Source: Alloascoidea hylecoeti (Eukaryota). Taken from it: a stretch of 64,000 nucleotides of DNA. Below are positions 18,549-40,447 of the stretch, piece by piece (position 1 is the first letter of the stretch; each line of letters opens with the position of its first letter). The stretch lies in assembly GCA_001600815.1 (NCBI GenBank), contig BCKZ01000015.1, positions 310,001 through 374,000 on the forward strand, read 5' to 3'. The position numbers and the translations under genes were made by a program. The notes below the pieces were generated by a model. That model was given only the letters and a program-made list of their open reading frames with translations. It was not told the origin of the DNA and did not search any database.

Positions 18549-18910
18549 CTAATTAACATAAACGGCTGCTATTCTAGGAGGATTGGAGTCAATAAGATTA
18601 TTAATGATATCATGGTTCGAAAGAGACTCAAATGATTGAACTTTTTTTACTTCTACACCATGTGGAAGACTCATAATCGTAATTCCTGCATTGCGATGCA
18701 CTTTGTAGAGGAGATTACACATGTGCTCAATCCGATTTGGGTTTGTTATTCTGCCTGAATATAAGACCAATTGAAGCAAAGTTCCATTCGAGAAGTTTTG
18801 TGCCGGTGGTTGTTTCTACTATTAGTATTCACCACTCTATATTATTCTAGGCCTACAATGAAGTACGACTTCCTTTCCAAATTCCAGCCGATACCATTAC
18901 ACTTGCATTT
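18549..18910 (-). mobile_element. Degenerate Tc1/mariner transposase fragment
   Basis: Broken frames give ASVMVSAGIWKGSRTSL, TTGTKLLE..GLIFRQNNKP, IEHMCNLL and INNLIDSNPPRIAAVY. These match Tc1 DDE motifs and the relic at 34.3-34.8 kb. Confidence 0.7.
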
Positions 18911-20963: not shown

Positions 20964-23900
20964 TTACGGTAATCTAATAACAATTTCACTTTCATAATTA
21001 GTTGAATTTGAAGAATTATGATTAATATAAATATTTGGTGATGTTGTTTGTAATGGTTGAGAATCAGCACTTTTAAAATCATCATCATCTGAATTATCAT
21101 CATCATTATAATTGTTATTGTTATTGTCGAAGTTATTATTTGAGTTTGTTGGATTGATTGTTAATTCTAATTCGCTATAACTATCATTTTCATTATCATT
21201 ATCACTATCATTTTCTTTAATTAATCTCATACTTTTTCCGATTCCAATTTCATTATTATTATCATTTATATTTCTAATTTCATCTTCATCTTCATCTTCT
21301 TCATCATCATTTAATTCTTGTGTTGAAGAAATTTCTTTAACATCATTGTATATTATTCCCTTTTCATAATTTAAAACTAATCTATATGATTCATTTCTTG
21401 AAATTGCCATCCATAATAATTTTAATTTAAATATTAAAGTTTTTGAAATAATACTTAATGAATCTCTTGTTTTTTGTTGTAATGGTGTTAAAATTTTTAA
21501 TTGTGAAACAGATTTAAAATATTCTTGTAATAATTTTTGTTGAGCTAAATGTTCATTTTTTAAAATTATTAATTCTTTATTTATTGAATTTAATCTAGCT
21601 ATTTGAGTTTCATTTTGACATTTTAATTGAGATTTAAATTTTTTAATTATTGATGATGTTGATGATGATGGTTTTGTTGGTTGTGGTGTTGGTATTGAAG
21701 AAGGTGATTGAATTGGAATTAAACCTAGATCATTTTCTTCTAAAAATGAATCATTAGGTTTTGAATATATAGATATATTTGGTGGTGGTATATTATCAGT
21801 TTCATTTTCATTTAATTTTGATGTTCCATTTATCGTTTTTAATGTATCATCATCCGTTATTCTTGTTATATTAGAATCAGGTAAAGTAATAAATGATGAT
21901 TGGATTGATTCTTTTTTAGAATTTAAATTTGAAGTTGATTGAGTATAAGAATTTGATTCTAAATTTCTGTAAATTTCAGCAGATCTTCTGATTTCAAAAG
22001 ATCTTGAACTGCTGCCAGAACCTGAGCCAGAACCTAAATTTGAATTTGAACCTGAACTATTTGAATTTAAATTTAAATTTAAAGATTTTGAAGATCTTGT
22101 TCTTGAATGAGAATGAGAACCACCGGCACCATTTGAAATAGAATATGACTGTGAATGTAAATAATTTATTGATCTATTAAAACCTAAAGATCTAATTTCT
22201 TCAGATAAATCAATATTACAAGTATTTAAGGTTGAAATATAATTTATTGCATTTATCCATAAAATCATATCATTAAAATTTTCAGAAATTAATAATTGAT
22301 TTGTACCATCATTATTATAAATATAAAAAGATTTTTCATTTTCATTATTATTATTTTCTGAAAATTCATTTGTTTGTGGATGTGATGAAGATTGTTGTCG
22401 TAAAGCAATTAACTTTTTAGTTGTAATTGATAATAATGGAGTAAAATCATCAATTGATATACTTATTGTTGCATCTTTAACTAAATTAGTTGAGTTTTCA
22501 AAAGAGTTTTCAAAAGTATTTGATTCTTGTGATGAAGGTGATTGAACAGGAGTATTTGAATTTGAATTTGAATATGAATATGAATTTGAATGTAAATGTA
22601 AATGTGATGGAGATTCATTAAGATTTAAATTTTCTAATTGATTTGACCACCAAGAGTCTTTGAAAAAATATAAATTTGATAAAGTTAATATAACATCAAA
22701 TTGTTTAAAAGGTGCACCACTATTTTTAATATTTGAATTGGTGTTAGAAGATCTTGGTTGTTTACGATTACGTAATAAGTCTTTTACATTTAAATTTGTA
22801 ATTAATTTACCAAATTTGATAACTTTAATATCAACAGAACCTGGTTGTGATAAATCAATATTAACATCATCTTCTTCTTCATCAATATTATTATTGAATG
22901 CCTGTTGTTGTGATTGAGATGGAGATTTATAAATTGAAAAAGAACCAGTTCTTGATCTCATTGAACATAATCTCAGGAAAGGTTGTTGTAAAATTAATAT
23001 TCTAGTTTCAATGAATTCTTCAACGCTTAAATAATGAATTTTAAAAGCATTTTTAGTATTTAATTGATTTGTTATAATTGTAGGTCTTACAGAATCAATT
23101 ATACCTTCATTAATTAAATAATAGGGATCAATATTTAAATTTGAATTTGAGTTATTACCCCAGCTTGGAAAAGTATTTGATTTTTTATTAACAATTTTAG
23201 AAGTTGTTGATGAAGATAATGAAAGATTTGGAGAATGTAATTGAACAGATTGTATAAAATGATCATCAGAATGAATAAAAGGGGTAAAAGTAATATTATC
23301 ATAAAAACATTCAAGTGTAAAATTTTCAATATTATTTGTTGAACCAGTTAAATTTTTTAAAAATTCATATTTTGACATTTTTTTTTTATTATTTTTATTG
23401 AAAAAATCAGTATGTAACATGATTAATGAATAAGTTAATATATAACAATCTTCATAATTTTCAAATATTTTTAAATTTGAATTGCATTGATAATACCTTT
23501 TTGAAAAGATTTCTAAAACTCGATCAATTTGTTGAGATTCTTTTGGTAATTCTGATATTAAAAGGAACTTTCTTAAAGATAAATCTAAAGGTTCATCATT
23601 GAAATCGAATTCTTGCAAGTATAAAGACATTGTTTGTTGATTAAAATCATCATTTTTATGTGACAGAAAGCAGTTTATGTATCTTTCGAAATGTAAGGAT
23701 TTCATTCTTGAAATGTATTGTTTTGGAGTTTCATTTTCCAAAGGAGGGATATTTGGAGGATCACTGATATTTATGAAGGATGGAGAACTGAGAGACACCT
23801 TTGAAGAAGATGACGGGGTATTTGAGGCGGAATTTGAAGATAACATACTATTTAAAGTAGATACGAAATTGGTGCCATTTCGCTTCTTAGCTTCTTGGTC

Positions 23901-24413
23901 AAGAGAACCCAAAGTTTTGCTACGTCTCCTTCTGACCTCAACGGAAGATTTCTTTTTAACGGGGGTTTCAGTGGCAGCTGAGTGGATTGAGTGTTGGGAT
24001 TGTATGGACAAGGAACGTGCTCTCAAGGAGACTGGGGGAGGCGAGGGGGCGGCCAGGGTCTGGGTCTGAGCCTGGGCCTGGTTCTCTTGGAAGAACATGG
24101 AGAGGGTCTTCCTTCGCAAACGGGAGAAAGGACGTCGTTTGGTGGACGGAGGGACGGGAGGGGCCGTGAGGGTGGATCTGAGGGACGCGGAGGATGCGTT
24201 TCTGTGCAGTGGGGGAGGGGACATGCGTGGGGACAGCCGTGCGGATTGGGTGTGGGAGGGTAGATCCAGCGACGGCCGCTTGTGTTGGGCTCTGCGTCCC
24301 AGAAACCGGTGGATTCCCGGGAGTCTGTGGGGAACACTTTTGGGATCGGCCTGAGGATCGGCCTGAGGATCGGTCTGAGGATCACTTAGTGGGTGTGTCA
24401 TTGTGCAGGGCAT
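20964..24413 (-). CDS. SYT1: Sec7-domain Arf GEF with a PH-like region (Syt1-like); start ATG at 24413 or 24401
   Basis: Sec7 motifs LRKFL..LPKESQQIDRVLEIF, YILTYSLIMLHTD and FYDNITFTPF; later WINAINY; syntenic with RDS3. Confidence 0.85.
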   Translation of the reverse strand: MPCTMTHPLSDPQTDPQADPQADPKSVPHRLPGIHRFLGRRAQHKRPSLDLPSHTQSARLSPRMSPPPLHRNASSASLRSTLTAPPVPPSTKRRPFSRLRRKTLSMFFQENQAQAQTQTLAAPSPPPVSLRARSLSIQSQHSIHSAATETPVKKKSSVEVRRRRSKTLGSLDQEAKKRNGTNFVSTLNSMLSSNSASNTPSSSSKVSLSSPSFINISDPPNIPPLENETPKQYISRMKSLHFERYINCFLSHKNDDFNQQTMSLYLQEFDFNDEPLDLSLRKFLLISELPKESQQIDRVLEIFSKRYYQCNSNLKIFENYEDCYILTYSLIMLHTDFFNKNNKKKMSKYEFLKNLTGSTNNIENFTLECFYDNITFTPFIHSDDHFIQSVQLHSPNLSLSSSTTSKIVNKKSNTFPSWGNNSNSNLNIDPYYLINEGIIDSVRPTIITNQLNTKNAFKIHYLSVEEFIETRILILQQPFLRLCSMRSRTGSFSIYKSPSQSQQQAFNNNIDEEEDDVNIDLSQPGSVDIKVIKFGKLITNLNVKDLLRNRKQPRSSNTNSNIKNSGAPFKQFDVILTLSNLYFFKDSWWSNQLENLNLNESPSHLHLHSNSYSYSNSNSNTPVQSPSSQESNTFENSFENSTNLVKDATISISIDDFTPLLSITTKKLIALRQQSSSHPQTNEFSENNNNENEKSFYIYNNDGTNQLLISENFNDMILWINAINYISTLNTCNIDLSEEIRSLGFNRSINYLHSQSYSISNGAGGSHSHSRTRSSKSLNLNLNSNSSGSNSNLGSGSGSGSSSRSFEIRRSAEIYRNLESNSYTQSTSNLNSKKESIQSSFITLPDSNITRITDDDTLKTINGTSKLNENETDNIPPPNISIYSKPNDSFLEENDLGLIPIQSPSSIPTPQPTKPSSSTSSIIKKFKSQLKCQNETQIARLNSINKELIILKNEHLAQQKLLQEYFKSVSQLKILTPLQQKTRDSLSIISKTLIFKLKLLWMAISRNESYRLVLNYEKGIIYNDVKEISSTQELNDDEEDEDEDEIRNINDNNNEIGIGKSMRLIKENDSDNDNENDSYSELELTINPTNSNNNFDNNNNNYNDDDNSDDDDFKSADSQPLQTTSPNIYINHNSSNSTNYESEIVIRLP

Positions 24414-24569
24414 CCCACCATCAATCAATCAACCAACAATAATAAAACAGCAGCAGAATGTAACGAAGCCTGCCGTTTACCCGGACTTCTCCAACACGTT
24501 TCCTCTCTCCGAGCCAAGAGGGCAAAAGCCAAACGGCCAAAGCCAAACGGCAGAACCAAAAAGCCAACA

Positions 24570-25124
24570 ATGCAAAGGTACCAACCCTACGTGAAACGTA
24601 CAGCCGTCCCTACAACCCCTGCTGTCCCCACGGACCCCAAGACAGACGAGGAGTACCGTTTGGCCATCGCAACACAACAGAGTGCCTACTCTTCCGCAAA
24701 CACCCAAGCACATGCTCCCAGCAATCCAAAATTAACCGTGAAACGGCAAGGAGGAGGGAAGACCTGGGATGATCCTTCCCTATTAGAATGGGACCCTTCT
24801 CACTTCCGTCTGTTTGTTGGTAATCTTGGTGCTGATGTAACTGATGACACTCTGATAAATGCTTTTAAAATATATCCTTCTTTTGTAAAAGCAAGAGTTA
24901 TCATCGATAAAAAAACTGCTGCCAACAAAGGTTACGGCTTTGTTTCTTTTAAAAATCCTGACGATTATTTTAAAGCTTTCAAAGAAAAAAATAATAAATA
25001 TATAGGTTCCCATCCTATACAATTAAAAAGAGCAAATACTGATATTAAACCTTCAAATATTTCAAAAAAGAATAAAAAAAATAATAATCATAAAAATTCT
25101 TATAAGAAAAGAGCTCCCAGATAA
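24570..25124 (+). CDS. RRM protein, RBM42-like
   Basis: GGGKTWDDPSLLEWDPSHFRLFVGNLG..KGYGFVSF..KYIGSHPIQLK. First ATG at 24570. Confidence 0.9.
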   Translation: MQRYQPYVKRTAVPTTPAVPTDPKTDEEYRLAIATQQSAYSSANTQAHAPSNPKLTVKRQGGGKTWDDPSLLEWDPSHFRLFVGNLGADVTDDTLINAFKIYPSFVKARVIIDKKTAANKGYGFVSFKNPDDYFKAFKEKNNKYIGSHPIQLKRANTDIKPSNISKKNKKNNNHKNSYKKRAPR

Positions 25125-25628
25125 TTATTTATTCATTTTTATTTCAATTATTACAAGTGTAATATACTTCATGCATTCAACCATTGTATCTTAACTAAAT
25201 AGCTAACTAATATTATTAGAAATTCATTTTACTCCTACTACTAAATTTATTTGTAAACAATATTGTAGGATGTTGTATTCTGAATACAACTTTTTCCAAA
25301 ATTTTGACAATCAATTGAGTGTATTTTCCTGAATTTGCAAATGGAATCATAATCAAGTTTGACCATTGAGGCGTCTTGTTTATATAATTATTCTCCTAAA
25401 ACTATGATGAAGCTCTAAAATACATCAGCTGAAGAGTAACCACTTGAAGTATAAATTGATTGATAATTTGCCATAAAGTTCAAGTAGTGAATTGTAAGGA
25501 TTCTCTACTTCACTTTGAACCATTTTAAAAGTGGCATCCTAACCGTATGATTGTATGACTCGGTAATATATTCAGATATATATTTAATACCCTTCCGATA
25601 TAATTGAAGAAGTTAGTGACAAATCCCA

Positions 25629-26095
25629 CCAACTACCGACCTCAAAAATTATTTCATTAAAATATACCAGAAGACAAGCGCTGAAGCAATAACCCCTAAA
25701 TATATTTATTTGGGCTTTTGAACAACAAGAATTCATCCTTTAAATCCTCAAAGGATATCAACAGAGTTAGAAGAGGTTTTGGTAGGCGAAAAAGAGGTAG
25801 AAGTAACTAAAAAAATTGAGAAAAAATTCATGGATTTACCTGAACAATGTAATTACACAGAGTTTAGAAAAAAAGCTTAGGAAGCGTGGTTGGAGGTTTT
25901 GAAACATAATGTTATGATATATGTGCAACGCAAGAGACTTTATCTCAAATTTCCACCACTGTATCCACGACTGTGCTTGAAGATCCTCTAAAACTATTCT
26001 AAGTGAATTCAGACTTCTAAGAAGGAAATACACCAGTGACACACAATTATCTGGAGATAACAAAGAGATACGTGAGTCGGAAGCTTGGAGATAGG
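25629..26095 (+). mobile_element. Degenerate pogo/Fot1-type transposase C-terminal relic
   Basis: FIKIYQKTSAEAITPKYIYLGF*TTRIHPLNP resembles the A.T..NI.S.F..TGI.P.NP block of pogo transposases. Inverted homolog at 33430-33905. Confidence 0.65.
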
Positions 26096-27497
26096 CTCAA
26101 TATGTTAAATCATAGAAGAATGGTCACACCACAACAAAAATATTAACAAAAAAATATCGTATATCAGAATTATGAGATCAGTTAGAGTTTAGTTTTGCAA
26201 TTAGCTATAGTGTTTTAAATGTAACAAATTTTAGTGACCGGAATCTATTTTTGCCGGTTAGCCATATATACGGTATGACGGTATAAATTATATCTACAAG
26301 TACATGTATACTGTATAGTACCTATCACCAAACTTTTGATAAAACGAATGAATTCGTTTATATAAGCATTATCAAGTTAAAAACTACTGTAATACCTCTA
26401 CCAGTTAAACTTCCAATCTACTACACGATACAACGTTTGCTATTCTATAAATCGTATCCTATTCTAACCCATGACAGCCATTCCTAATGCACTAGCTACT
26501 ATCCTTTCTCATAGCATAAATAGCACGTTTGGGACCTAATGTCTTCATTTTTTACAGAACAGTTTGCAATTTCACTGGAAGTAATCCATCGAATGCCATC
26601 ATATACGCCAGTAAATGCTCATTTATAGCCCACTCCTGGCCACGGGCATAGGCTCAACTCTCTTCCCTACCGAACAGCTTCAACTAAATGCATCCATATT
26701 CAGAATTTGCGTCTGTCACCAATTCACTATATATTTATCCTTTGAGAACATAACTTCACTTTAGGGGTAAGTCCCTTTTAGTAATTGCTTTTCCTTGCTT
26801 TCTTTCTTAGCTTAAGTTCTTGGGTTTTAGTTTTATAATATTATTAGTTGCTATTCTTGATATCGCTTTAATATTACCAGTCAGTATACTGTATATGTTT
26901 CAACACATTTAATATAACTTTCACCGTGCTTTTATAATTCCTTTTACAGTTGAAATATGTTATTTATACCGGTACAAGACGTCAAAGCTTCAATCAAAGC
27001 TTATGCATACACGTAGCATGCATCTGTGCATAAGTTCATCACTTTCTTTCCTTACATGTAATGGGGTTTTTAATAGCGCTATATGATACTATTCTCACTC
27101 TCACACTTCTTGTTTTTTTATGGACATAGTCCTATCATCTCAAACATGCTTACGACCATTCATACTTGTATAAGATTAATGTAAGTAACGTATAGCTCTA
27201 GATCCGGGGCTTCCCTTATACAGTTAGTTTATATAGGCCTCCCTTGATAAATATTAATCTTGCTTCTTCCACACAAAAATAGTCTGGAATTTAACCAAAA
27301 GACTTAATCAAAACCATACATTTCATATAAGAACAGCAAACCAGTTACTACATATAAACTAATCATACAGTGAATATAAGGTAAACTCTTTGCTCATATT
27401 GTTTTCTGTCACATTGTCACATTAATTATGTATCCTATACAATAGTATACATATGCGACTTCTTTACACAATTGGAGATCTCATAGAATAAACATCA

Positions 27498-28439
27498 TTA
27501 ATGAAATATATCAATATAGGGTATACTTATTATAATTATAGCTACAAATATAGCTAAATAACAGAGTTTGTAAAAAATACGATGTCTTTCACATCTTTCT
27601 GCACTAATCCTTTCACTAGGGTCATAAGCTAATAGGTTGTCGAATAAATTGATGCTATCTTCATCCAACATTGGAACAATAGTCTTCAAATCTTTCTTCT
27701 TCAATTTAGGAAAGTAGTTTCTCTGAAACCATCTAAAGCAGTAATACTGGGCCAGATTTCTTCAGTGAGTGTTCCCCTTACTCTAAAAATTCGAAATATT
27801 TCTTCAAATACAGACAGACCTTCTGGCGAACAAAACTTCCCTGTTGACCATTTCTGCAAATAATAATTACTTACTGACCACATATCAACACCTGTGTCGT
27901 ATTGCCTTCCTCCACATAACAATTCGGGAACCCTGTACCATAATGTAACAACCTCATATGTAGATGGACCCCAATTGCCCGTGCGAGTCCAAAATCCCCA
28001 AGCTTCAAGTTTCCTTCTTTATCCATTAACAAATTCTGAGGCTTTAAATCACGGTGCATGATACTAAGTGAGTGTGGGCAATACAACGTCCCTTGCAAAA
28101 TCTGGATCATAAACTTCTTATTGATATCTGCTCCCCAAGGAACGTGTGGTACCGTCTCCATGTACTTTTTCAGGTCGATACCAACAAATTCAAAAACAAG
28201 TGTCATCTTTGAAGTTTCGGAAACGATAACATCGTATAACATGATGATGTATTCGTTCTTAATCTCGCAAAGTGTAGAGATATCTTATTGTGGAAGGACC
28301 CTTCATCTTCGTCATCAAATCTGATCTGCTTGAGCGCAACTAGCCTGTTATTATCCCTACGATTGTTGGCTTTATAGACAACTCCATAAGTACCTTCTCC
28401 GGCTCTTTCCAATTTGTGAAAATCTGAGAGTTTTGCCAT
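27498..28439 (-). pseudogene. CDC28: CDC28/CDK1 paralog pseudogene with at least 3 frameshifts
   Basis: GEGTYGVVYKA..VALKQIR, then a PSTAIRE region broken by small indels. [42 protein letters not shown] and YDPSERISA are spread over several frame segments. Confidence 0.88.
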
Positions 28440-28995
28440 TTTTACTATTATATTAATATTTCAATTGATATTAAGTTAGCATTGATATGTAGTATAGGCA
28501 TATATGATAAAAATAAGTGTTCCCAACCAATGGATATAATTAATTCCAACTCCTCAATTCACAATTGCAATTGATATAATATTTTGTTCATTAAGTAACC
28601 TTGATTTTAACTTTATTATATGGATGAAAATAGTTAGTTGTGAAAGATGAAATACTATTGAACTTTTGATCAGAGTTGGTACATGCATTTAAACCTAGGC
28701 TTATAACAAAGCAAAGATTTAGACTATAATCAAAACCAAGACGTAATTTTTAGCAGGTGCAATATACCAATAACTAGATATAAAATTGTATTTAAATATG
28801 TATAGATTAACATCTGTAGATATATGCTATGGTTTATTAATATTCGAATAACATAATTAGACACATGAACCTGCATGCATGTGGTATAACTATGCAATAA
28901 TATTTAAAGAAATATATATAATAAACAAACTTTACATTTCTAGTTAAGTTTTTTATTCTCCTTCAAGTGGAACTATCAAAAAGCTAGTACAAAAT

Positions 28996-30450
28996 ACACG
29001 AATGTTTGAAGAATTCTCCTTTAGATTTAATTTGGGAGCCATGTATGTATATGTAGCTATTATAGATAAGTTTTATTCCATATCTTGAGCCCGAGACTAC
29101 TACTTCAATATTCATTAATATTCAATTGTGAATTTCACATAGTATATTTATTCGAAGTTTAAACACAATCGCGACCAATACGTATCCAACTGACAGCTAT
29201 GGATGGTATTGGTAGAGGTAGCTATGGAGCATATCTAGTAACTTAGCTTATCCTATCCGTTTAAGGTATAATTGACATAATTAAATTAAATTAATACATC
29301 TATATAAATATCCAATTACATATCTATATTATACATACTAAGGTATTAATATTACAATTAGTTATAAGTTAATATATAAGGTAGTTCACATTGATTCCGT
29401 GATCCACACATGGTCGACGTCCGTGAAGACCAATTGAATCCGTAAACCCCGCGTATTTTTCCTCCTCTCCACAACCCCTGAAGATGGGAATAAACAAAAA
29501 CTTACGACCTCTTGATTCAAGGGGCAAGGAAGCCAGAATCGAAAAATGCCTTTTGCAATTGGCACGCACACTGAATGCTATCATTTCAAAAGTCGCCAGA
29601 GTTAACGGGGTGCCCCGCTCAACATTAGTAGATCGAATAAATGGTTCAACCTCTTCAGCGCCGTCAACTCAAAAATTCCAAAATACTTACAGAATTAGAG
29701 GAGAATCGGCTTACAGATGGTCTAATTTATTGTGCGCGAATGGGAATTGGGAAGGATATGTCATCCTGTTTTGATATGGTAGATGAGATAATTGACTGGA
29801 AGTATGAATTTCACATGTGAATTGATGATTTTATCAAATAAAAAACTTAATATTTTATTGGAAAAGGAACGACGACAATTTTTTACCGGTAGTTAGATAC
29901 CTTGAGCTCGATATTTGGGGAATTTTCTTATGTATTGTTGATACTATTATATATAACTAAAAGATCACAATAATTAATTTCGAAATATCTTTTTATTCGT
30001 CAGCTACAGTTAATATTTTAGCAGGCTATATATGTATATAATACCAACAGATGTGAACACAATATGGGTACGGATAAATTCCAATTGAATGCTATAGAAA
30101 AATTTTACGGTTACAGTTTGACCCAACACGATTGATAAATGAATATATATATATATATATATATATATCAATATTTAAAAAAGAGGGGTGCCCAAATTTC
30201 ATTGCACACTTATCATCGAACCTTTCTCATGTCCAATTCACACAATTATAACTAATCATACAGATTCTTAAATACAATTGGAATGAATTTGTGAAATGTG
30301 ATTATGCCATATAATTTTGAAGGTGAAATTTTAGGATTTCCATTCAGGTCGCGTCATATATTTCCTAATACGGCTAATGACTGGTAAATAATTCCATTCT
30401 TTTCCAACAGCATTGCTTCTAAGAATTCGATCTTATTATATACTTCTGAT
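28996..30450 (+). repeat. Left arm of a long degenerate inverted repeat
   Basis: Reverse complement aligns collinearly with 31760-33192, e.g. GAATTCTCCTTTAGATTTAATTTGG vs CCAAATTAAATCTAAAGGAGAATTC, and GTGCCCAAATTTCATTGCACACT vs AGTGCGCAATGAAATTTGGACAC. Block ~29340-29800 does not match. Confidence 0.88.
29484..29805 (+). mobile_element. pogo/Fot1 (CENP-B-like) transposase N-terminal relic: psq-type HTH plus start of second HTH, frameshifted
   Basis: VARVNGVPRSTLVDRING, then after a frameshift KILTELEENRLTDGLIYCARMG..MVDEII. Confidence 0.75.
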
Positions 30451-31759
30451 AGTATATGATTACATTTTTGATAGCATTAATGTGACCAGATTGTTGTTAG
30501 GAGTATTATAAGATGTGTTATATCTCTGAAAGAATTGCAGAATTAATTCACATCAAATCCTTATAATTAATATCAACCATGATTAGTAGCAGCATAAAAA
30601 GAATATCTGTTGTTGTTATATCTTTTTTCTTTTTTAGCTCAAATTCACTATTGGAGATAACACACAGAGTTTAATTAATATGGCACAACCATTACACTTC
30701 GGCCACTTGGAGGACTAAATATTCAGTAACAACAAGCACTAATATTCAGCCATTATGCTTAATAATTATTGGCTATGTGATAAACAATATTCGCTTATTT
30801 TCAAATTAATTTTCGGTCATTATGATGAATAAATATAGGCCATATACAGTTTTTTCACTTAATTTCAGACACTTGGAGGACTAATTATACGGACATCACT
30901 AAATCAGCGCTGTAGCATATTCACCATCCGTCACCTACTATATGAGGAACCCAGTTTATACTACTCTCTTGAGTTGGTCTTCTAATATTGATATTAAATT
31001 CGTCAATGATTTTGTGCCGGCGCCTAATGATAAAACAAGTTTGAGATTAATAATTAGGATATTTATTATTATTATTAGAAGATTTTTCAAGTTTTGTCTG
31101 TTTGGAAAATGATAATTGAAGATTTAACTTATGATATAGGTGAAATGTATATGTAAAATCTTCTGAGGATCAAAAGGTCATCACCACGGTAAACCAATTC
31201 TAATTTCAAAAACCTACTTTTTCTCTTTGATCGATACTTTGTAAAATCATATTTCGTTAATTTAAAGCTAAAGTCAGAGCAAGCCTAATTGAGCATTGAC
31301 ATTTAATATACAAGTATAATTATATCACTTCCAAATGATAGTGTAGCAAAAGGTTAAATATATCAAATGGGGTTTGAAATTTGAAATTATTAAAAGTTCA
31401 AATGCTAATAATATAAAGGTTAATATATAAAACAAAATATAAAGTAGAAATTAACTAATTTGTATCTGAAATTATATGTAATTGTTAACGCATTTTTAAA
31501 CATAAAACAGATAATTTTATATGACATATTTCATCTACCTTTTTGGTTAAGACCTTCGTTTACATTTTTTACATTTTCTGTATAATTGTTAAGAAAAGTA
31601 AATCAGTTTAAAGAGGAAGAAAAAAGAGAACCATACCAAGCCAATATTAATGGATGTAGCTAGAAACTTATTACTTTAATAATATAATCATATTATATTG
31701 AATATTGATATATTGCAACAATGCCATTGTTTATATAACATCATAGTTCAATTTACCAT

Positions 31760-33192
31760 TTCAGAAATATATAATAAGCTCAAGATTGAATTTTAAGAAG
31801 CAATATGATTGGAAAATAGTTGGAATTATTTACAATTAATATGCCATATTAAGAAATATTCATTATTATACAAATGATCATAAGATCTTATATTTGGAAT
31901 CTCTAAATCTTCGCCTTTAAATTTATATATGGCATGAAAATCAAAATACACAAATTCATGCCAATTTTATTTAAGAATCTAGATGATTGGTTATAATTGG
32001 GAAAATTGGATACTAGTATCATGGGGAAGGCTTGATAATAAGTGCGCAATGAAATTTGGACACTAGTACCCCTTTTTTAAAATTATATTTCTGTTTTTAT
32101 CGTTATTGGGTCAAACTGTAACTATAACTTTTTCTAGTATTCAATTGGACGTTATACCTCCATTTTGTGTTCATATATCTGTTAGTATTCTGGACGGTAC
32201 TGCCAAAGCCGACGAATAAACAGATATTACGAAATTAATTATTGCGATTGTTTAATTAAATGAAAATTTCTCAGCCTTGTTTATTACAGTTTCAAACATT
32301 GAGCTCAAGGTATTCCTAACGACGATTATTACATAAAAAATGATCGTCGCGCCTCTTCAGGTAAAATATTAAGTTTTTTATTTGATATATAAAATCATCA
32401 ATTCAGATTTGAAATTTAATATCTCTTTTGCTCATTATTAACATATGTAGATATCTCAGAATATTTCAATTGCTACTATTTCATTTCTCTAACGATATCA
32501 ACGAAGAGGAGTAAGACAGACCCTATATATTAAGTTGTAATTGCTAAACTTAACTGTAAATCTAATTTTTATGATTTTAAAGTTTTCAAATTGGAGAGCT
32601 ATAGCATTGTACACAATAGAACAAATATAGCTAATTGTTTATATCGATTAAAAGCCGCGAAAATTGATAATGTTTAAGATATACTATGCTCCATCATCTT
32701 ATTTAAGTTATGTAATCATAAACGAAAAAAAAAAGTTATGACTATAGATTAAATACAAATCTACTGATATATACAACTTAATTATAGTTATTATCGTTTC
32801 ATGACAATCAAGTCAAATAATTTCCAATAGTTCTAGTAGCTATAGATAGGTCTAGAAATATATTAGCGATCTAAATATGTAAGTGGATATTACTATGAAT
32901 TAATTACTAAAATTGTATAGGTATTCGTAATTTGTACCTTGAATTGATAGGATAAGACAAAATTACCATTCTATTTCTACAAATACCATCTATAGTTATC
33001 AGTTGGATATGGATTGTTCGCGATTGTGTTTAAGTTTCGAATAAAGATACTATGTGAATTTTCAATTGAATATTAATGAATATTGAAGAAGCGGAAGTCC
33101 CGATTTCATGGAATAAAGCTTATTTATATATATACCATATTATGCGTGTCCTCCAAATTAAATCTAAAGGAGAATTCGTCAAACATTCGTTT
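31760..33192 (-). repeat. Right arm of the long degenerate inverted repeat
   Basis: See left arm; block ~32420-32860 has no counterpart there. Confidence 0.88.
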
Positions 33193-33429
33193 ACTGTATG
33201 TTATAATATCATTAGATTTATACTAGTCAGGAAACGTTACCGGAATGCTTAAAATTGTTACATCTCAACCACGAATTACAAAACCGGCAACAAATATAAA
33301 TTATTGAATATAGTATTAGTAAACTCTACCTATTCTTATAATTCTGATGATATACCGTATATGCGATATTTTTTTGTGAATCTTTTTGTTGTGGTATGAG
33401 CATTCTTCTGCGACTTAGCGTAACGCTCA

Positions 33430-33970
33430 CTAGTTCCAAGCTTCTGACACACGTATCTCTTTGTCATATCTAAATAATTGTATGTAATTAATATCTTTTC
33501 TCTCTCAGAAGTCTGAATTCACTTCGAGCATTATGGTAGAAATTTGAGATAACAAAGTATCCTGCATCCCCTTATTTGTCCAAATACATAAATCATCATC
33601 AGTTATCTCATGTTTTCAATTTTCTAGCCGCACTTCTTGAGCTTCTTTCACAAACTCGGTTGATTTACATCTTTCAGATAAATCCTCATATAAGATCAAT
33701 TTTTCCTCAATTTTTTTTTTGGTAACTTCTACCTCCTTCTCGCCTACCCAATTTTGTCGGAACTTGATTATATCCTCTAGGGATTAAAAAGATATATTTC
33801 CGTTGTTACACAACGCGATTTAATATTTTTAGGGGTTACAGCTTTAGTGCCTGCCTTCTGGTATATTTCAATGAAATTTCCTTTTTTTGAGGCCAGTGGT
33901 TGGAGGAAGTCGTTACCTAGCTTTTCGTCGTAGAAGAACTCAGACCCCCAGTCTCCAACAAGATTCACAT
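33430..33970 (-). mobile_element. Degenerate pogo/Fot1-type transposase C-terminal relic (inverted homolog of 25629-26095)
   Basis: FLQPLAS..FIEIYQKAGTKAVTPKNIKS..TTEIYLFNP. Shares GGTAGGCGA.AA.GAGGTAGAAGT, AAGTGAATTCAGACTTCT and ACAAAGAGATACGTG.GTC.GAAGCTTGGA with the 25.6-26.1 kb copy. Confidence 0.72.
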
Positions 33971-34346
33971 TATCGTATACCAGTATGCCATCAGAATTAT
34001 GAGATTAAGTAAAGTTCAGTTCAGTAGTACTACATTCGATAATTTATATTTGTCAGTGATTTTCAATTTGTGGTTGAGATGTAACAATTTTGAGCATCCC
34101 AGGAGCCTTTCCCAACGGTACAAGTTATAAATTACGGCCTTAAAGTTGCTAGACGTTTTTGGATGCTACTACTCGATCCAAAAAAAACCAAAAAAGTCAA
34201 TGTTATATAGCCAGCCGCTGAATACTCCATAGTATCCATAATATTTAATGTATTCATGGAAGGACTGTTCTTAAAACAATGCATAATGTCCCGTGGATAA
34301 TAGAGAATATATTAGTGTGCATGAACTGAAATGTTAAATCTGGTAT

Positions 34347-34780
34347 TTAGTTTGGTGGTCCCTTAACACTATAAACGTCGGCCACTCTACGAAGCATGGA
34401 GTTATTCAGATACTCAACGATATAATTATCCATGGGTGACATTGGGGTCCCAATATTTTGAAAGAGACTCAAAAAATGGATCTTTCCTTCATTTCTACAC
34501 CATGTGAAAGTGCTCACAATTGCAACTCCTACATTCTGATGCATGTTTTTGAAGAGATTCTAAATGCGCCCATATGGATTCGCGTCCGGTGAATAAGGCT
34601 GATACCCCAATACCTCTATCTTCTTTTCACGAAAGCAATTCATCGTGGTTTCAGCTTGACGAAAATGTGAGTTATCCTGCATTAAAATAAGACCCTCGGG
34701 AATCTCATCAAAGGCCGCTTTCCAGGAGTTTCATGTAGGAAGGTCCGGTAGTTATAGCTCCTGTTAATGATATAATGAAA
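34347..34780 (-). mobile_element. Degenerate Tc1-type (DD34E) transposase C-terminal fragment
   Basis: GLILMQDNSHFRQAETTMNCFREKKIEVLGYQPYSPDANPYGRI*NL..NSMLRRVADVYSVKG. There are 34 residues between the QDN Asp and the expected Glu, which now reads GGG (Gly); the following Trp position is TAG. Confidence 0.85.
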
Positions 34781-35526
34781 TAATTTAATTAACTAATATT
34801 CAGTTATAAGTCTGACTTAAAATTATAACAGAGTCAAAACAGACATTTACAGTTTGATAGCCAATTTCCATTATGAAATAGACACCTGAGATTTAAGTTG
34901 ACAGCAAAGTAGTTTATTTTTTTGTTAGACTTAAACTAATGCAAACATTATGTTTATCTCACAGCTAATAACTATTAATTTATATAAGCTAGTATCGTCT
35001 TCAGAAAATATATAGATATATCCACCATAGGTTATTAATTGCACAGGGGAATATTATAGTAAAAAAATAGTGGGGATATTTCCCCAAGCTTAACCAACAG
35101 GTACATACACTAACTATACTAAGATTAAGATTTGATCATCAGCAAATATGCGGCTTTATGTAAGGGATTGGGCCTGGAGTGGAAGTTACACAGCTTCCCA
35201 CTGACGGATAAGTGGTCAAAATCCTCATTCAAGTTCGGTAACCGCGACGACTTGGGTGAACGCGAAGAATCTAATATGAATAAACAGCCCAAACAAGTAA
35301 TTTCGGATCTATGCATAGTAGCTTAAAATCTTTACCTATTTTGACTGAACACCAAAAAGGAAACTACCTAGTCTGTGAAATATAAGATGTATATCCAACT
35401 ATTAAAGAGATCCAGATCTGTTCCAAAATACCTCTTTAACTTTCAGAATTATCTGTCTTTCCTATTCCTTCTTTCCTTCGGGGTTATTACACAATATAAA
35501 CACTTTTCTAGTTAGCAATCTTCTAA

Positions 35527-36957
35527 ATGTCTTCAATGAACCAAAACCAAAATCTGATTTCCGAGACAGCTTCTTGGCTAGATGAGATGGGCCCTCCAAT
35601 TCCCCCTAAGTCAGATAAATATCCTATCATCCTGGATAAACATGAAAAAGAAGTTGCAATTACCGTATTAGATGAATATAAAGAAGAGATCGCATCACAT
35701 TTATCATCAATGGAACATCTTTCTATCATTGACGTTCATTTGATTAACATGCAGCCAGAAATCAAATGGCATATGAGACCATATCTTTTGGACTTTATTA
35801 TTGAATCCCATTTAGCATTGGAGTTAATACAGAAAACTTTATTCCTCGCATGTAATATTATTGACAGGTATTGTGGAAAAAGAATGGTTTTTAAACAACA
35901 TTACCAACTTGTTGGATCTACTGCATTATGGATAGCCTCAAAATATGAAGATAAAAAATCTTCAGTACCAACATTACTTGAATTGCAACGCATCTGCCAG
36001 GATGCTTATAAAGTGGATATGTTTATTCAAATGGAGTGTCATATTTTAACAACACTAGAATGGATGATGAACCCACCGACTATTGAAGATTTTTTACAAT
36101 TTTCAATTGGGTTAACTGAATGCCCGGAATCATCTCCAGATTTTATTAACATTCATAGACAAGCTTGTCAGATTTCTCCCTGTAAAACTGTCCAAGCAAT
36201 TACTGGCATATCAAGCTACTTTTGTGAAATATCCCTCTACCATCGATCATTTTTTGCCTTCTCTGCTTCAACCATTGCTATAGCTTCGCATATCCTAACA
36301 AGTCAAATTTTAATGCTATCAATTAAACCTAAGACAACAATACCTGGAATGAGAGAGAACCCAGATTCCGAAGCTCAAATATCAGAGTGTATCTCATTGA
36401 TGATGAATCTAGCCCCTACTTCTTCTCCATATGTCCAGGCCAAATATGCTGAATTTAGTGACATTGTCAGGAACTTTTTCACAAACTCTACCGGCTCCTT
36501 TAGTGGTCCCTCTTTTAATGTTATAAACCAAAGAAGACCTATTGTGAGACCATTAAATAATTCTTTAGTGTCAAACATTAATTTTAAAACATCTACCAAG
36601 ACAATTAAAGATAATCCCGAAGCTCAACATCAATATTCGATCCCCACTCCAACAACACCTCCATGCTCATCCAGATCAAGATCCTTTACGTTTTCATCTA
36701 AAAGTAGTCTAGTCCTCTCTCCACGATACATTGACTCGCCCTCTTCTTCTATTAGTAGCCCTATTGAAAGTTATGCAAATAAAAGATGCAAATTGAACTC
36801 AGATTCCAAGTATAGAAACTCCTCTGTGTCTTCCCTAAACCTTAAGATTAAACCATTGGTACTAGTACCGAGTAGGGAGAATTCAAAAGTTTCAGATAAT
36901 AATAATTACACTACTGAACCCCAAACAGTTGATAGTGATGAAGAAAATGAAGAGTAA
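35527..36957 (+). CDS. G1 cyclin (Cln/Ccn1/Puc1-type)
   Basis: QPEIKWHMRPYLLDFIIESH..IDRYCGKRMVFKQHYQLVGSTALWIASKYEDKK and a Ser/Pro/Thr-rich PEST-like tail. Confidence 0.92.
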   Translation: MSSMNQNQNLISETASWLDEMGPPIPPKSDKYPIILDKHEKEVAITVLDEYKEEIASHLSSMEHLSIIDVHLINMQPEIKWHMRPYLLDFIIESHLALELIQKTLFLACNIIDRYCGKRMVFKQHYQLVGSTALWIASKYEDKKSSVPTLLELQRICQDAYKVDMFIQMECHILTTLEWMMNPPTIEDFLQFSIGLTECPESSPDFINIHRQACQISPCKTVQAITGISSYFCEISLYHRSFFAFSASTIAIASHILTSQILMLSIKPKTTIPGMRENPDSEAQISECISLMMNLAPTSSPYVQAKYAEFSDIVRNFFTNSTGSFSGPSFNVINQRRPIVRPLNNSLVSNINFKTSTKTIKDNPEAQHQYSIPTPTTPPCSSRSRSFTFSSKSSLVLSPRYIDSPSSSISSPIESYANKRCKLNSDSKYRNSSVSSLNLKIKPLVLVPSRENSKVSDNNNYTTEPQTVDSDEENEE

Positions 36958-38093
36958 ACTTCCAAGGACTAGCTGTTGAAGATTTTTGTTATTAGGATCA
37001 CTACCCACTTTCTAAGGGTGATCCTACTGTAATCGGTTAGACTAGGGAAACCGGTTACTATTATATTCACCAGAAGATAACTTGGTTAAACTCCATTAAA
37101 AATTGGGAAGAGGGGATTCCAAAAAAGATGAGCTGTGAAATTTTTACGAAAAGTCACTTCTTTTAGAAAGAAAAAGGGTTGAACCCCACAATATGCGGAG
37201 CCCACGTTAGATGCTTAATTCTTGTGGAGCTAGCAATAATCAGTTCAATTGGAACCATTAACTACCAGGAATTTCTTGAAGACAATTACTTAAAGGTGGA
37301 AAATGAAAGGCAAATATGTTCAGAGACCCATATGTATATTATGATGAGATAAAAAGCAAATGAGTAGGTCTAGTATGTTCATAGACTCAAGTTAATGATA
37401 ATTGACATTACCAAATAGGCTATAGGTATCATTCATTATTGTTATATATATATATATATATATATATATAGCTAATATTTTAGATTATTTAGATAGTAAT
37501 TAAAAATTTTGTTTACCACAAAAAGGGAGAACGGTTTGTGTATCATAAGAATTTATATATCAAACTTGTTGAGCGGAATAATTTAGACTCGTTGAAATAT
37601 TTTAGGTTGCTTTGTTTATAGATATAGATATTATGAAATATTAATAGCATATACTTGAAGCGCATAGTATATGCATTGTAACTCTAACAAAAATAAGCAA
37701 AAATGAAATATAGGATCATACATATAAGCTGAATACCTACAACTGCTACTAACCTGTTATATACGTTCCTTTAGGTGCCGGGAAAGTTGGGTTACCTAAT
37801 AATCTCGCGTGTCCTGACTCCTGGGTTGTAAGTCGACCGAAATTTTGAGGGAGAAAGATTGTATGCATTGGTGGTTAACGTATAAGTTATAACTACTGTA
37901 GTTATAGGGAGGCCTCAGATCAGCTATAAATTTATCCTAGGCATTTCTCAGTCGAGTAACTTACATTTCCAAAAGGAATTATAATAAATATATTGGTTCT
38001 CATTCCATTCATGATAAGCTGTAGGAAAAAAATAAAAAACATTCATATCAAAAACTTAAGATAAATACTAGGTGGTTATTACTATGTACAATT

Positions 38094-39311
38094 TTAACGT
38101 AATTTTTTACCTTTATATTTACTCTTACTTTTCTTCTTGACTTCAATTGGTTTAGGTTTCTCATCTCTTTTCAGCATCTTCTTTACATCCTTAATATCAT
38201 CTTTAACAATTTCTTTCATCAACTTAACATGCCAAAGCCTTCCATTCTTTTCCCTCAACTCATTCTTCTTATCTGCCAATTTCTTCATCTCGATCCCTAA
38301 TTGTTGATCATAACTAACACCTCTTTGTGCTTCTTTAATACTCTCTTTTCCAAATAAAAAATCAAACACTCGTCCATCTCCCCAAAAAAACCCTTTTCTA
38401 TCAACAATCCATGGTAATCTTTTGCCTTTTTCCCGTAACATGAAGAAAAAAGTTGACCTATCTGCTGTTCCGTAAAACCCATTACCTGTCCATACTTTAG
38501 TCTTTTTTCCACGTACTAAATTATCCAAGGGAATTGTATAAATTGGCGTTGCTCTTCCAGGAATTATAGGATGTGTTGAAAATTGTATAAAAACTTTATT
38601 ATTCAAATTAGGAACATAAACAATCTTTCGAATCAATCGACTTGGAATAATTGTACAAAGCCAACAACAAAACCCAGGGATCAAAAAAATTAATAATGAT
38701 ATTGAAACACGACCACCGAATAGTAAACCATTATGGAAAGGAATTAAATTATTTGAATTTTCAAGATATATATTATATGATTCATGCAATGACCAATCTA
38801 AAAATGTTAATCCATAGACACCAAATATAAATCCTAAACATCCACAAATTAAGAAATATAATCGATGTGGCTCACTTTCATAAATTACTTCTGGTTCAGT
38901 TTTAGTTTGTAATATATTGATTAGTTTGGAGAAAGTTAAATGAGGACCAACTCTGGGGACGTTAGGTCGTGGTAATATAGTAGGAATGTTTTCCTTTGAT
39001 AAAGGAAATTTGGGGATACGGGATGTCAGAGTATTTGAAGATAGGTCTTGAGTTGCATAGAAGGATTTATGTTCAATTATATCGGAATTTGGTTGTTCAA
39101 TTTCCATATTTTTATTCAAATTCACATCAACTGTATTTGATTTTTGAGTTTTGATTTTATTTTTAATTTCATTTTTGGAAGTTTTAGTTATATCATTATG
39201 GTTATACCGTGTTTGGATTGTATTAACTTGAATCATTTTCATAATTGAGCGAGGTTTTAATTTCAAAATTGAAATTGGTGCTCTGTGCACTAATATCCCA
39301 TTCAGAATCAT
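38094..39311 (-). CDS. Probable mitochondrial two-TM membrane protein (possibly TMEM223-like)
   Basis: 405-aa ORF with a basic presequence-like N-terminus and two hydrophobic segments after IYESEPHRLYF. Family call is tentative. Confidence 0.7.
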   Translation of the reverse strand: MILNGILVHRAPISILKLKPRSIMKMIQVNTIQTRYNHNDITKTSKNEIKNKIKTQKSNTVDVNLNKNMEIEQPNSDIIEHKSFYATQDLSSNTLTSRIPKFPLSKENIPTILPRPNVPRVGPHLTFSKLINILQTKTEPEVIYESEPHRLYFLICGCLGFIFGVYGLTFLDWSLHESYNIYLENSNNLIPFHNGLLFGGRVSISLLIFLIPGFCCWLCTIIPSRLIRKIVYVPNLNNKVFIQFSTHPIIPGRATPIYTIPLDNLVRGKKTKVWTGNGFYGTADRSTFFFMLREKGKRLPWIVDRKGFFWGDGRVFDFLFGKESIKEAQRGVSYDQQLGIEMKKLADKKNELREKNGRLWHVKLMKEIVKDDIKDVKKMLKRDEKPKPIEVKKKSKSKYKGKKLR

Positions 39312-39401
39312 TATTATACCATTAATATTAGTGGAGGATCTAGGAGGTTTGGTTTTAGAAATTTTTCTTTCAACCTTCCATCTCTGATTTTCTCATCACT
39401 A

Positions 39402-39872
39402 ATGCAACATCACGAAAATACAAATAATATGAATAATGGCCATGCCATAGATCCCACCACAAGAACAGTACATGAAACTGAAATAACTACAACTTCAACA
39501 GAAGAACGAACAGCAAGAGAAGATACAACACCGATACCAAAATTAAATGTCAATGAAAATCCCGATTATATAGCGTTAAAATCAACATTGTCCCTTCTTG
39601 AATCCCAAAGGAAGCAATCGACGAAAGATATTTTAAAATTGGATTTATTAAAAACTGAAGCTTTATCAAATCCTCAAATGTTTATCAATAATTTACAAAC
39701 AAATTCACATAAAATTCCGGTAATGCAGAAAATTGTCCAGGTTCCAAAAATTGATATGAAGAAATATCCAGTGGGGAATTCCAATGTTGTTAATGATGAA
39801 GATGGGAATGAGGAAAAGGATCCGATGTTCAAGGAAACTAGATTGTTTGATCAACAACAAGAAAAAGAGTGA
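39402..39872 (+). CDS. Small protein resembling the ZZZ3/Ahc2-type HAT-complex module
   Basis: NPDYIALKSTLSLLESQRKQSTKDILKL..EALSNPQMFINNL..QKIVQVPKID pattern recalled from ZZZ3-like proteins; not verified by search. Confidence 0.6.
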   Translation: MQHHENTNNMNNGHAIDPTTRTVHETEITTTSTEERTAREDTTPIPKLNVNENPDYIALKSTLSLLESQRKQSTKDILKLDLLKTEALSNPQMFINNLQTNSHKIPVMQKIVQVPKIDMKKYPVGNSNVVNDEDGNEEKDPMFKETRLFDQQQEKE

Positions 39873-40447
39873 TTTATATGCATGATGTTTAATGTTATTT
39901 AGTTAACCGGATAGGAGTGTATACAATCATCTTATTGCTATTACATGGAAAACATATTATAATGCATACACAACTAGTGGTTGTAATATTCACAACATAA
40001 GAGTATAGGCTTAAATTATTTATCAAAAGGCAAGCACAGTATCTAAAAAGTTGACAGAGTAAACAAACGGTGTATCTACAGAAAGGCTAAATAATATACG
40101 GTACATTTAAATAAACCTGGTACTATACTATTAATTACTTTACTCTCAATTCCTTCAATATTAACTATGCACTCATTTGGAGCTTTAAGCAAAGTATTTC
40201 CCTTACATCTGTACATTAATAAGAATTAATGCTATATAAGTTTCAGTATGGATTTTAATATTACATGAGCGGTGTAAGAGTTCCACCTCAAGAGTTATGG
40301 TTAACGTTTTTAGATTTCAAAAGTAATGTAATGCATGGCCTTATTACTAATTTATAGATATAAAACATCATGAAATAATGGCTATTCAAAATATCTAAAA
40401 GGATTAAAATTATGTACTCCCATATACAATATCGATGATATATTTAT

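Follow-up and report, generated by a model that had tools for sequence, protein, structure and literature searches.

Does a long gene-free interval with an inverted repeat (IR) inside it mark the centromere of a yeast chromosome, or is it a patch of intergenic DNA in which old sequence has been left to decay? The question arises from a 64 kb window (the whole stretch of DNA analysed, 64,000 nucleotides), in which the largest gap between genes measures 10,402 bp, in agreement with an earlier reading made from the letters alone (hereafter the sequence-only reading) that had described ~10 kb with no intact gene; among the other 21 gaps listed the median is ~1.4 kb, and none exceeds 3,041 bp. The only ATG-initiated open reading frame (ORF) of at least 100 aa in the interval is one piece of a kinase pseudogene, and a six-frame Pfam search of the interval at E ≤ 0.1 found protein kinase fragments only, with no relics of reverse transcriptase, integrase or gag. 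A tRNA scan of the interval found none, an Rfam scan found no family, and promoter and terminator predictions were at shuffle level, the models being bacterial and the host a yeast. All four non-trivial inverted pairs that self-BLASTN finds in the 64 kb window fall inside this interval, as does, within 22-40 kb, all extra contig depth bar that of a cyclin paralogue and one low-complexity run.

The repeat consists of collinear mirror-image arms at 28995-30455 and 31757-33193 (1,461 and 1,437 bp), which flank a 1.3 kb core in a unit of 4.2 kb, as found by repeat scan, self-BLASTN and alignment. It is real and far above chance: inverted seeds are collinear and spread over both arms in the repeat scan, and self-BLASTN recovers an inner pair (29807-30449 versus 32416-31761; E = 5e-68, with 68% identity across 703 columns, gaps counted) and an outer pair (28995-29329 versus 33193-32869; 75%, E = 1e-56). 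Homology amounts to ~1 kb per arm, in two blocks. By alignment, block 1 (28995-29345 versus 33193-32860) is identical at 77% of 326 ungapped columns (K2P 0.28) and block 2 (29800-30455 versus 32425-31757) at 73% of 613 (K2P 0.34), while the intervening ~450 bp (arm A 29345-29800, arm B 32425-32860) show no mutual homology. The sequence-only reading, which had described two collinear inverted arms of ~1.45 kb that were 75-80% identical by eye, was right about the layout, but not about continuous homology. The arm pair is old and no longer matching, and the near-identity (homogenisation) that marks most described IR centromeres was sought in the arms and not found, given their 73-77% identity and unrelated middles. 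The arms share perfect runs (26 and 25 nt; 26 and 17 nt) longer than column shuffles give, and the sum of runs of at least 15 nt was reached by none of 2,000 column shuffles in either block; such runs could reflect patchy conversion or constraint, with uneven alignment quality as the other possible cause. The outer limits of homology are sharp and carry the same ~40 nt terminus at both ends, of which a 38-nt pattern, with three mismatches allowed, has only two matches in the window, the arm ends themselves.

Table 1 Features of the gene-free interval and its flanks (positions are those of the window)
Feature	Position	Strand	Remarks
RRM-domain protein, left flank	24570-25124	+	ORF of 184 aa; Pfam RRM_1 E 6.6e-17
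Gene-free interval	25125-35526	.	10,402 bp, largest in the 64 kb window
E'	25610-26260	-	truncated, decayed copy of element E, inverted relative to E
Cyclin-dependent kinase (CDK) pseudogene (Pho85/Cdc28-like)	27498-28460	-	at least four reading-frame pieces
Arm A block 1 (outer)	28995-29345	+	single-copy depth at ≥80% identity
Arm A middle	29346-29799	+	insert without arm B counterpart; G+C 0.408
Arm A block 2 (inner)	29800-30455	+	alignment; (AT)13 run at 30143-30168
Core	30456-31756	.	1,301 bp, non-coding, G+C 0.271
Arm B block 2 (inner)	31757-32425	-	BLASTN, alignment
Arm B middle	32426-32859	-	A+T-rich, 26% G+C; unrelated to arm A middle
Arm B block 1 (outer)	32860-33193	-	BLASTN, alignment, 38-nt end pattern
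Repeat element E	33230-34112	.	883 bp, ~185 bp terminal inverted repeats (TIRs)
Weak Tc1/mariner-like transposase C-terminal relic	34347-34730	-	DDE_3 E 0.03-0.05, below Pfam cut-off
G1 cyclin (CLN/CCN1-like), right flank	35527-36957	+	Cyclin_N, Cyclin_C

Copy number was taken as the summed depth of contigs matching at ≥80% identity in three runs (two samples) of the same organism, a comparison to which copies below 80% identity, such as any as old as the arms, are invisible. The homologous arm blocks stand at 1x depth in all three runs and are therefore no young dispersed element at ≥80% identity, which answers the concern that the arms might prove to be a dispersed high-copy element. Contigs span 22131-29403, 29529-30128 and 30181-35723 with 0 differences; an assembly artefact was ruled out on the agreement of the three runs with the window, although the runs are possibly its source and the agreement is then not independent.

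The insert in the middle of arm A is a member of a small repeat family (depth 2.7x, with contigs breaking at 29403-29529) and contains an ORF of 115 aa at 29427-29774, for which phmmer found 0 relatives among 1.84 billion representatives; a pogo-type helix-turn-helix (HTH) assignment of this ORF was dropped, the Pfam match to HTH_psq having an E of only 0.024. The six-frame Pfam search of the core, with stops read as X, found nothing credible and no ORF relic. Part of the core has look-alikes elsewhere, since its depth is ~1.7x baseline (summed contigs, three runs of the same organism), so that of the ~1.3 kb non-coding unique core of the sequence-only reading the length and the lack of coding hold and the uniqueness does not. 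Base composition is ordinary: the G+C of the core falls inside the intergenic range of 0.256-0.348, core and arms together lie at 27-29%, and there is no G+C trough. In searches for enriched motifs and arrays, no k-mer of 10-12 nt recurred as often as four times, and tandem arrays were absent.

Around the repeat lies dead DNA of several kinds. Four ORF pieces of the CDK pseudogene match Pkinase, with E values from 1.5e-21 to 0.057, and the best solved relatives of the pseudogene are Pho85 (1e-29) and CDK1 (8e-27). Element E begins 37 bp outside arm B and is bounded by TIRs that are 73% identical (33230-33414 versus 34112-33927); a short stretch in its left TIR occurs on ~30 contigs of the same genome, with an alternative base at 33286 on 27-30 contigs per run. 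E matches no protein family, and no longer relatives of its ORF at 33777-34004 were found. Its copy E' lacks the right terminal repeat and is 68% identical to E by BLASTN (25610-26222 versus 33923-33290), as confirmed by alignment; with a depth of ~4x baseline at 25606-26206 (summed contigs), E and E' are multi-copy in the genome. The Tc1-like relic is represented by ~7 contigs at 34478, and the repeat scan found no direct repeat families. Copies of the arm A insert, E and this relic are few, at ~2 to 7 extra contigs each. The relics are DNA-transposon-like because they have terminal inverted repeats, and assignment of E, E' and 34347-34730 to Tc1/mariner-pogo would draw on TIRs and multi-copy occurrence for E and, as regards a transposase, on sub-threshold DDE_3 only. 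The many transposon relics of the sequence-only reading are thus borne out as multi-copy sequence for E, E' and the arm A insert, but the protein evidence is weak (HTH_psq E 0.024, DDE_3 E 0.03-0.05).

A 116 bp fragment related to the Tc1-like relic also lies outside the desert (34457-34572 versus 18616-18729, 75%) and counts against centromere-specific clustering. DNA transposons tend to re-insert nearby, and clustering of relics is for that reason possible without any centromere.

We tentatively favour, as the leading single reading of these data, that the desert is the chromosome's candidate small regional centromere with a decaying inverted repeat. Dead DNA has gathered in the interval, which contains the CDK pseudogene, decayed repeats of at least three kinds and the old inverted duplication. 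Under the leading reading the centromere would be propagated epigenetically by CENP-A/Cse4, and the inverted repeat would be the decaying remnant of an IR-mid-IR architecture like that of K. phaffii. The arms would no longer be held alike by gene conversion, their middles having later been broken by insertion or replacement, and the repeats and pseudogene may persist thanks to a lack of transcription and a low rate of recombination in the region; kinetochore function at the locus is likewise something that we infer only. It is possible, though on the whole doubtful, that this is a working centromere of an isolated, possibly early-branching budding yeast, with a K. phaffii-like layout whose arms have drifted to ~75%. 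Against a centromere stand arms that are only 73-77% identical, and in blocks, together with ordinary G+C and the absence from the interval of a motif, a tandem array, reverse transcriptase or integrase.

Comparison with known yeast centromeres shows where the likeness holds and where it ends. In the extracts of Coughlan et al. 2016 (PMC5010909), CEN1 of K. phaffii has an IR of 2,012 bp and a mid of 1,330 bp in a total of 5,354 bp, its centromeres sit in untranscribed regions of 6-9 kb, and the arms show ~1 difference per 2-2.7 kb. Both systems have kilobase inverted arms, a mid of ~1.3 kb, a gene-free region of several kilobases, unexceptional base composition and sequence unique to the locus (here the arm blocks at ≥80% identity, the core having look-alikes in part). 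The structural analogy to K. phaffii drawn in the sequence-only reading is therefore sound, function aside, arm, core and desert being alike in size. IR-type small regional centromeres have inverted arms on either side of a mid of ~1-10 kb, a layout that the locus shows. However, the K. phaffii arms are near-identical, whereas those described here are 73-77% identical and interrupted; the same extracts describe K. phaffii as without known transposons, whereas the surroundings here are full of repeat relics; and the K. phaffii centromeres were shown to bind Cse4, to replicate early and to be untranscribed, whereas the present locus is a candidate.

Imperfect repeats occur at other centromeres. 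For example, the extracts of Ola et al. 2020 (PMC7263194) give >75% identity as the criterion by which IRs were drawn and predicted at the centromeres of the C. parapsilosis group, and C. parapsilosis, C. orthopsilosis and C. metapsilosis share with the present locus a mostly unique mid between imperfect IRs; confirmation by Cse4 ChIP-seq and IR sequence partly common to several chromosomes are features of that group. On this comparison imperfect repeats do not disqualify a centromere, and 73-77% is borderline against the >75% criterion. An intact IR is no guarantee of activity either, because in one C. parapsilosis strain the IR of CEN5 is intact, yet neither allele binds Cse4 (PMC7263194, extracts). 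In Wickerhamomyces and Barnettozyma, the extracts of Hession et al. 2025 (PMC12711049) place every Hi-C centromere peak on a long intergenic region; Barnettozyma resembles the present locus in having IRs of 0.5-4.3 kb in such regions and differs in that its IR pairs are 99-100% identical, with no decayed IR of ~75% described in those extracts. IR and IR-less centromeres coexist in the genus and are read there as a structural transition under way. Centromeres built on Ty5-like clusters (Debaryomyces, Scheffersomyces, Ogataea, Cyberlindnera) are, in published extracts, alike in that copies of dead mobile elements are concentrated in a single long gap between genes, but the relics here bear TIRs and include no reverse transcriptase, integrase or gag.

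These readings bear on the open question of how repeat-based centromeres gave way to point or featureless ones in budding yeasts. Coughlan et al. considered the IR form possibly ancestral, with epigenetic and Ty5-cluster forms as degenerated IR centromeres (PMC5010909, extracts), and Hession et al. argued for replacement of centromere structures in situ (PMC12711049, extracts). If the locus is a working centromere, the proposed degeneration of an ancestral IR centromere to a featureless, epigenetic form would have been caught part-way, and IR centromeres would extend to a lineage far from Pichiales, Serinales and Phaffomycetales; if the site is in use with visibly decayed arms, it would be a direct intermediate in centromere evolution. 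If it is not a centromere, the interval amounts to decaying repeats of an ordinary kind, of little interest.

That last outcome would follow if the unit were non-centromeric junk, an old local inverted segmental duplication in an intergenic region that also took in transposon fragments and a dead CDK gene, drifting neutrally and without function, which might have originated, for example, by template switching or by repair between nearby repeats. We regard this as a possible but less than probable explanation. K2P distances of 0.28-0.34, many indels and unrelated middles are what neutral decay gives, composition is ordinary with no enriched motif, and the duplication of the neighbouring cyclin region (breakpoint ~34950) suggests a rearrangement-prone spot. 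E' and E also lie outside arms A and B in collinear inverted order, which fits a larger duplication with a 2.7 kb interruption in arm A. However, nothing significantly similar to the 37 bp that separate E from arm B is present beside E' (13 of 200 shuffles score as high), and a single larger inverted duplication that takes in E' and E was rejected on this count. The perfect runs between the arms, exceeding what column shuffles give, also sit poorly with neutral drift, and a simple duplication leaves unexplained why dead DNA of varied origins gathers in one gap.

Foldback and other long-TIR DNA transposons have long inverted termini, a short non-coding middle and sharp outer ends. The locus shares all three, and the whole of 28995-33193 (4.2 kb) could be one dead foldback-like element that inserted at a TA site and whose ends have since diverged, although we consider this unlikely. 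In its favour are the terminus common to both ends, a TA readable by eye on both outer flanks of the alignment, and the tendency of the interval to collect TIR-type elements (E, E' and the Tc1-like relic). However, the three runs gave no second arm-block copy at ≥80% identity (copies as old as the arms would fall below 80% and hence be missed), no convincing target-site duplication was found, a two-base TA match being near chance in DNA of 30% G+C, and the six-frame Pfam search gave no trace of a transposase in either the core or the arms. The arm ends are also unlike the termini of E, and no family member was found in the window.

A former IR-type centromere, inactivated by repositioning nearby or by chromosome fusion and now decaying in place, is a distinctly improbable explanation: loss of homogenisation is expected after loss of function, and precedents include disused but intact IR sites in C. 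parapsilosis with new centromeres within 30 kb (PMC7263194, extracts) and the described move of Barnettozyma away from IR centromeres (PMC12711049, extracts), but the 64 kb window contains no sign of fusion and no second centromere candidate, and the features at the locus are indistinguishable from those of an active centromere or of neutral decay. A MAT-locus flip-flop inverted repeat was rejected, as six-frame Pfam found no homeodomain, alpha-box or HMG in the core or interval.

Of the genes that border the candidate centromere, the RRM gene has its 3' end pointing toward the desert, and we know of no flanking gene here that adjoins an S. cerevisiae centromere. The named relatives of the cyclin all belong to the G1/S cyclins, and it shares 70% identity with one unnamed protein. 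The best named relatives of the G1 cyclin (~42-49%) and of KGD2 (~65-72%, full length) are scattered over many ascomycete orders, and an early-diverging yeast lineage seems plausible. The region upstream of the cyclin, from ~34950, also occurs at a paralogous locus of this genome: at 85-90% identity, a second contig aligns to 35119-35425 and to 35619-35723, and a further one covers 36258-36919.

The sequence-only reading had proposed, as a candidate regional centromere, two collinear inverted arms around a unique core, and a large inverted repeat (IR) is indeed present, recovered by repeat search, self-BLASTN and global alignment alike, though its details required correction. Six of the 11 inverted pairs found by the repeat search in 25000-37000 (I2, I3, I6, I7, I8 and I10) are collinear seeds of this single repeat, and self-BLASTN of the whole window paired 29807-30449 with 32416-31761 (E 5e-68) and 28995-29329 with 33193-32869 (E 1e-56), both inverted and both seen again with short words. 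A 38-nt pattern from the outer end, with 3 mismatches permitted, matched the window at the two arm ends only. Collinearity held for two homologous blocks per arm, the outer with 251 of 326 ungapped columns identical (77%, K2P divergence 0.28) and the inner with 447 of 613 (73%, K2P 0.34), but not for the ~450 bp between them, which are unalignable and unrelated. Contigs show no difference from the window across 22131-29403, 29529-30128 and 30181-35723, so an assembly artefact is ruled out, albeit by runs that may be the window's own source.

Features of the gene-free interval and summed contig depth in run X1 (baseline 23.4)
Feature	Position	Orientation	Depth	Details
Outer homologous block	28995-29345 vs 33193-32860	inverted		global alignment
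Inner homologous block	29800-30455 vs 32425-31757	inverted		global alignment
Core	30456-31756			between inner blocks; global alignment
Arm A middle	29345-29800			41% G+C; no alignment to arm B middle
Arm B middle	32425-32860			26% G+C; no alignment to arm A middle
Open frame in arm A insert	29427-29774	+		115 aa; insert 41% G+C, repeated elsewhere in genome
Cyclin-dependent kinase pseudogene (Pho85/Cdc28-like)	27498-28460	-		at least 4 frame pieces; ~7 kb from intact G1 cyclin gene
Element E	33230-34112			883 bp; terminal inverted repeats (TIRs) ~185 bp; begins 37 bp beyond arm B
Element E'	25610-26260	opposite to E		truncated E copy, 2.7 kb beyond arm A
Tc1/mariner transposase-end-like stretch	34347-34730	-		DDE_3 E 0.03-0.05, under Pfam cut-off
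E', bin	25606-26206		98	
Arm A outer block, bin	28611-29211		23.4	
Arm A insert, bin	29212-29812		64	
Arm A inner block, bin	29813-30413		18.4	
Core, bins	30414-31615		38-40	
Arm B inner block, bin	31616-32216		23.1	
Arm B inner block and middle, bin	32217-32817		22.8	
E left end, bin	32818-33418		108	
Remainder of E and Tc1-like relic, bins	33419-35221		46-62	
Cyclin gene, with paralogue, bins	35222-37024		41-49	

The repeat lies in a 10,402 bp interval (25125-35526) bounded by an RRM-protein gene and the G1 cyclin gene; the remaining gaps between ORFs of at least 120 aa reach 3,041 bp at most, around a median of ~1.4 kb. Its sole clear protein relic is the kinase pseudogene (closest solved relatives Pho85, 1e-29, and CDK1, 8e-27), and searches there for tRNA genes, Rfam families, tandem arrays and reverse transcriptase or integrase relics found none. 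An active centromere with a decaying inverted repeat is the leading, though tentative, reading of this locus, favoured by the layout, by the window's exceptional gene desert and the dead gene within it, and by the confinement to one gap of all non-trivial inverted pairs that self-BLASTN found in the window and of the extra-copy DNA of 22-40 kb, the cyclin paralogue and a low-complexity run excepted. Against it stand the lack of arm homogenisation, ordinary composition and the absence of a shared motif. A rough prior, inferred from contigs totalling ~24-26 Mb and from assumed numbers of a few chromosomes and a few tens of similar deserts, places it near even odds at best.

CEN1 of Komagataella phaffii, 5,354 bp in all, consists of two 2,012 bp arms that show a single difference and a 1,330 bp mid region between them. 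Each chromosome of that species has one untranscribed region of 6-9 kb, and CEN1 lies within such a region; every centromere has a sequence of its own, with nothing unusual in composition (PMC5010909). In layout the present locus resembles CEN1 strikingly, whereas its arms are only 73-77% identical. Barnettozyma likewise has IR pairs of 99-100% identity, with IR and IR-less centromeres mixed in the genus, and all Hi-C peaks of Wickerhamomyces and Barnettozyma within long intergenic regions (PMC12711049), while in the Candida parapsilosis group IRs were drawn and predicted by a >75% identity criterion (PMC7263194). Near-identical arms are among the features that define the IR-centromere family and those found here are 77% and 73% identical, so the locus is not classed as a member; at most it may be a degenerate derivative functioning in the same way. 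If a centromere, it would be a useful intermediate in centromere evolution; if not, it is a patch of junk DNA.

An old inverted duplication unconnected with a centromere, which the diverged arms would also fit, is somewhat less likely, and a dead long-TIR transposon less likely again. Copy number was assessed by aligning contigs of three runs of one organism (X1, X3 and X4; two samples) and one wood-decay metagenome (X5), all containing the stretch, to 22000-40000 at ≥80% identity. The homologous arm parts are single-copy at ≥80% identity, the pattern of X1 being repeated in X3 and X4, and the arms are thus not a young dispersed element, which counts for a centromere; copies below 80% are invisible to this alignment, and copies as old as the arms are expected to fall there. 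The core is not unique as had been supposed, its depth of 38-40 against a baseline of 23.4 indicating that it is partly repeated elsewhere in the genome. The arm A middle, one of a small family of repeats, entered the arm later than the duplication, by insertion or replacement. Its open frame had no relatives among 1.84 billion representative proteins and a protein search returned no longer relatives for the ORF of E, so the transposon superfamily is assigned tentatively, from structure and weak motifs; self-BLASTN also found a 116 bp relative of the Tc1-like stretch at 18616-18729. DNA-transposon-like elements can cluster through local hopping, and such clustering of these relics is conceivable, which weakens the centromere reading.

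A former centromere, or anything else, takes the small remaining probability; in C. parapsilosis, one strain has a CEN5 site that has lost Cse4 binding despite an intact IR (PMC7263194).

Within the left terminal repeat of E, ~40-60 nt (33267-33330) occur on ~30 genome contigs with few variable positions (an alternative base at 33286 on ~30 contigs), and may represent a miniature derivative family; the remainder of E has only few extra copies. Two scans of a metagenome contig collection, one with this ~30-contig piece and with the pattern verified on the window, gave no match at all, the window's own locus included, and the organism is therefore absent from that collection. In X5, a second wood-decay metagenome sample, short contigs match 26949-27153, 31733-31981, 33398-33621 and 37649-37812 with no differences at depth 2, and the same organism seems present at low abundance.

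The window's genes are long and uninterrupted. The full-length named yeast relatives of KGD2 (Geotrichum, Blastobotrys, Wickerhamomyces, Hanseniaspora) are ~65-72% identical, with filamentous ascomycetes at similar values, and the G1 cyclin matches its own record, then one unnamed 70% relative, then none above 49%; this fits an isolated, possibly early-diverging, budding-yeast lineage. The cyclin gene and ~580 bp upstream (34950-36957) have a genomic paralogue, 85-90% identical at the nucleotide level in aligned parts, whose similarity ends near the desert's right edge, and the unnamed 70% database protein may be this paralogue. Elsewhere, two amino-acid permease genes (43933-45714 and 47807-49591) form a tandem pair with 71% DNA identity across 1.6 kb, and a 147 bp direct repeat (15601-15747 and 17894-18040; 82%) common to two adjacent RING-finger genes suggests partial gene duplication. 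The low-complexity stretch at 22554-22591, within a Sec7-domain gene, is a simple-sequence motif frequent in the genome (~45-52 contigs per run; summed depth ~400x baseline).
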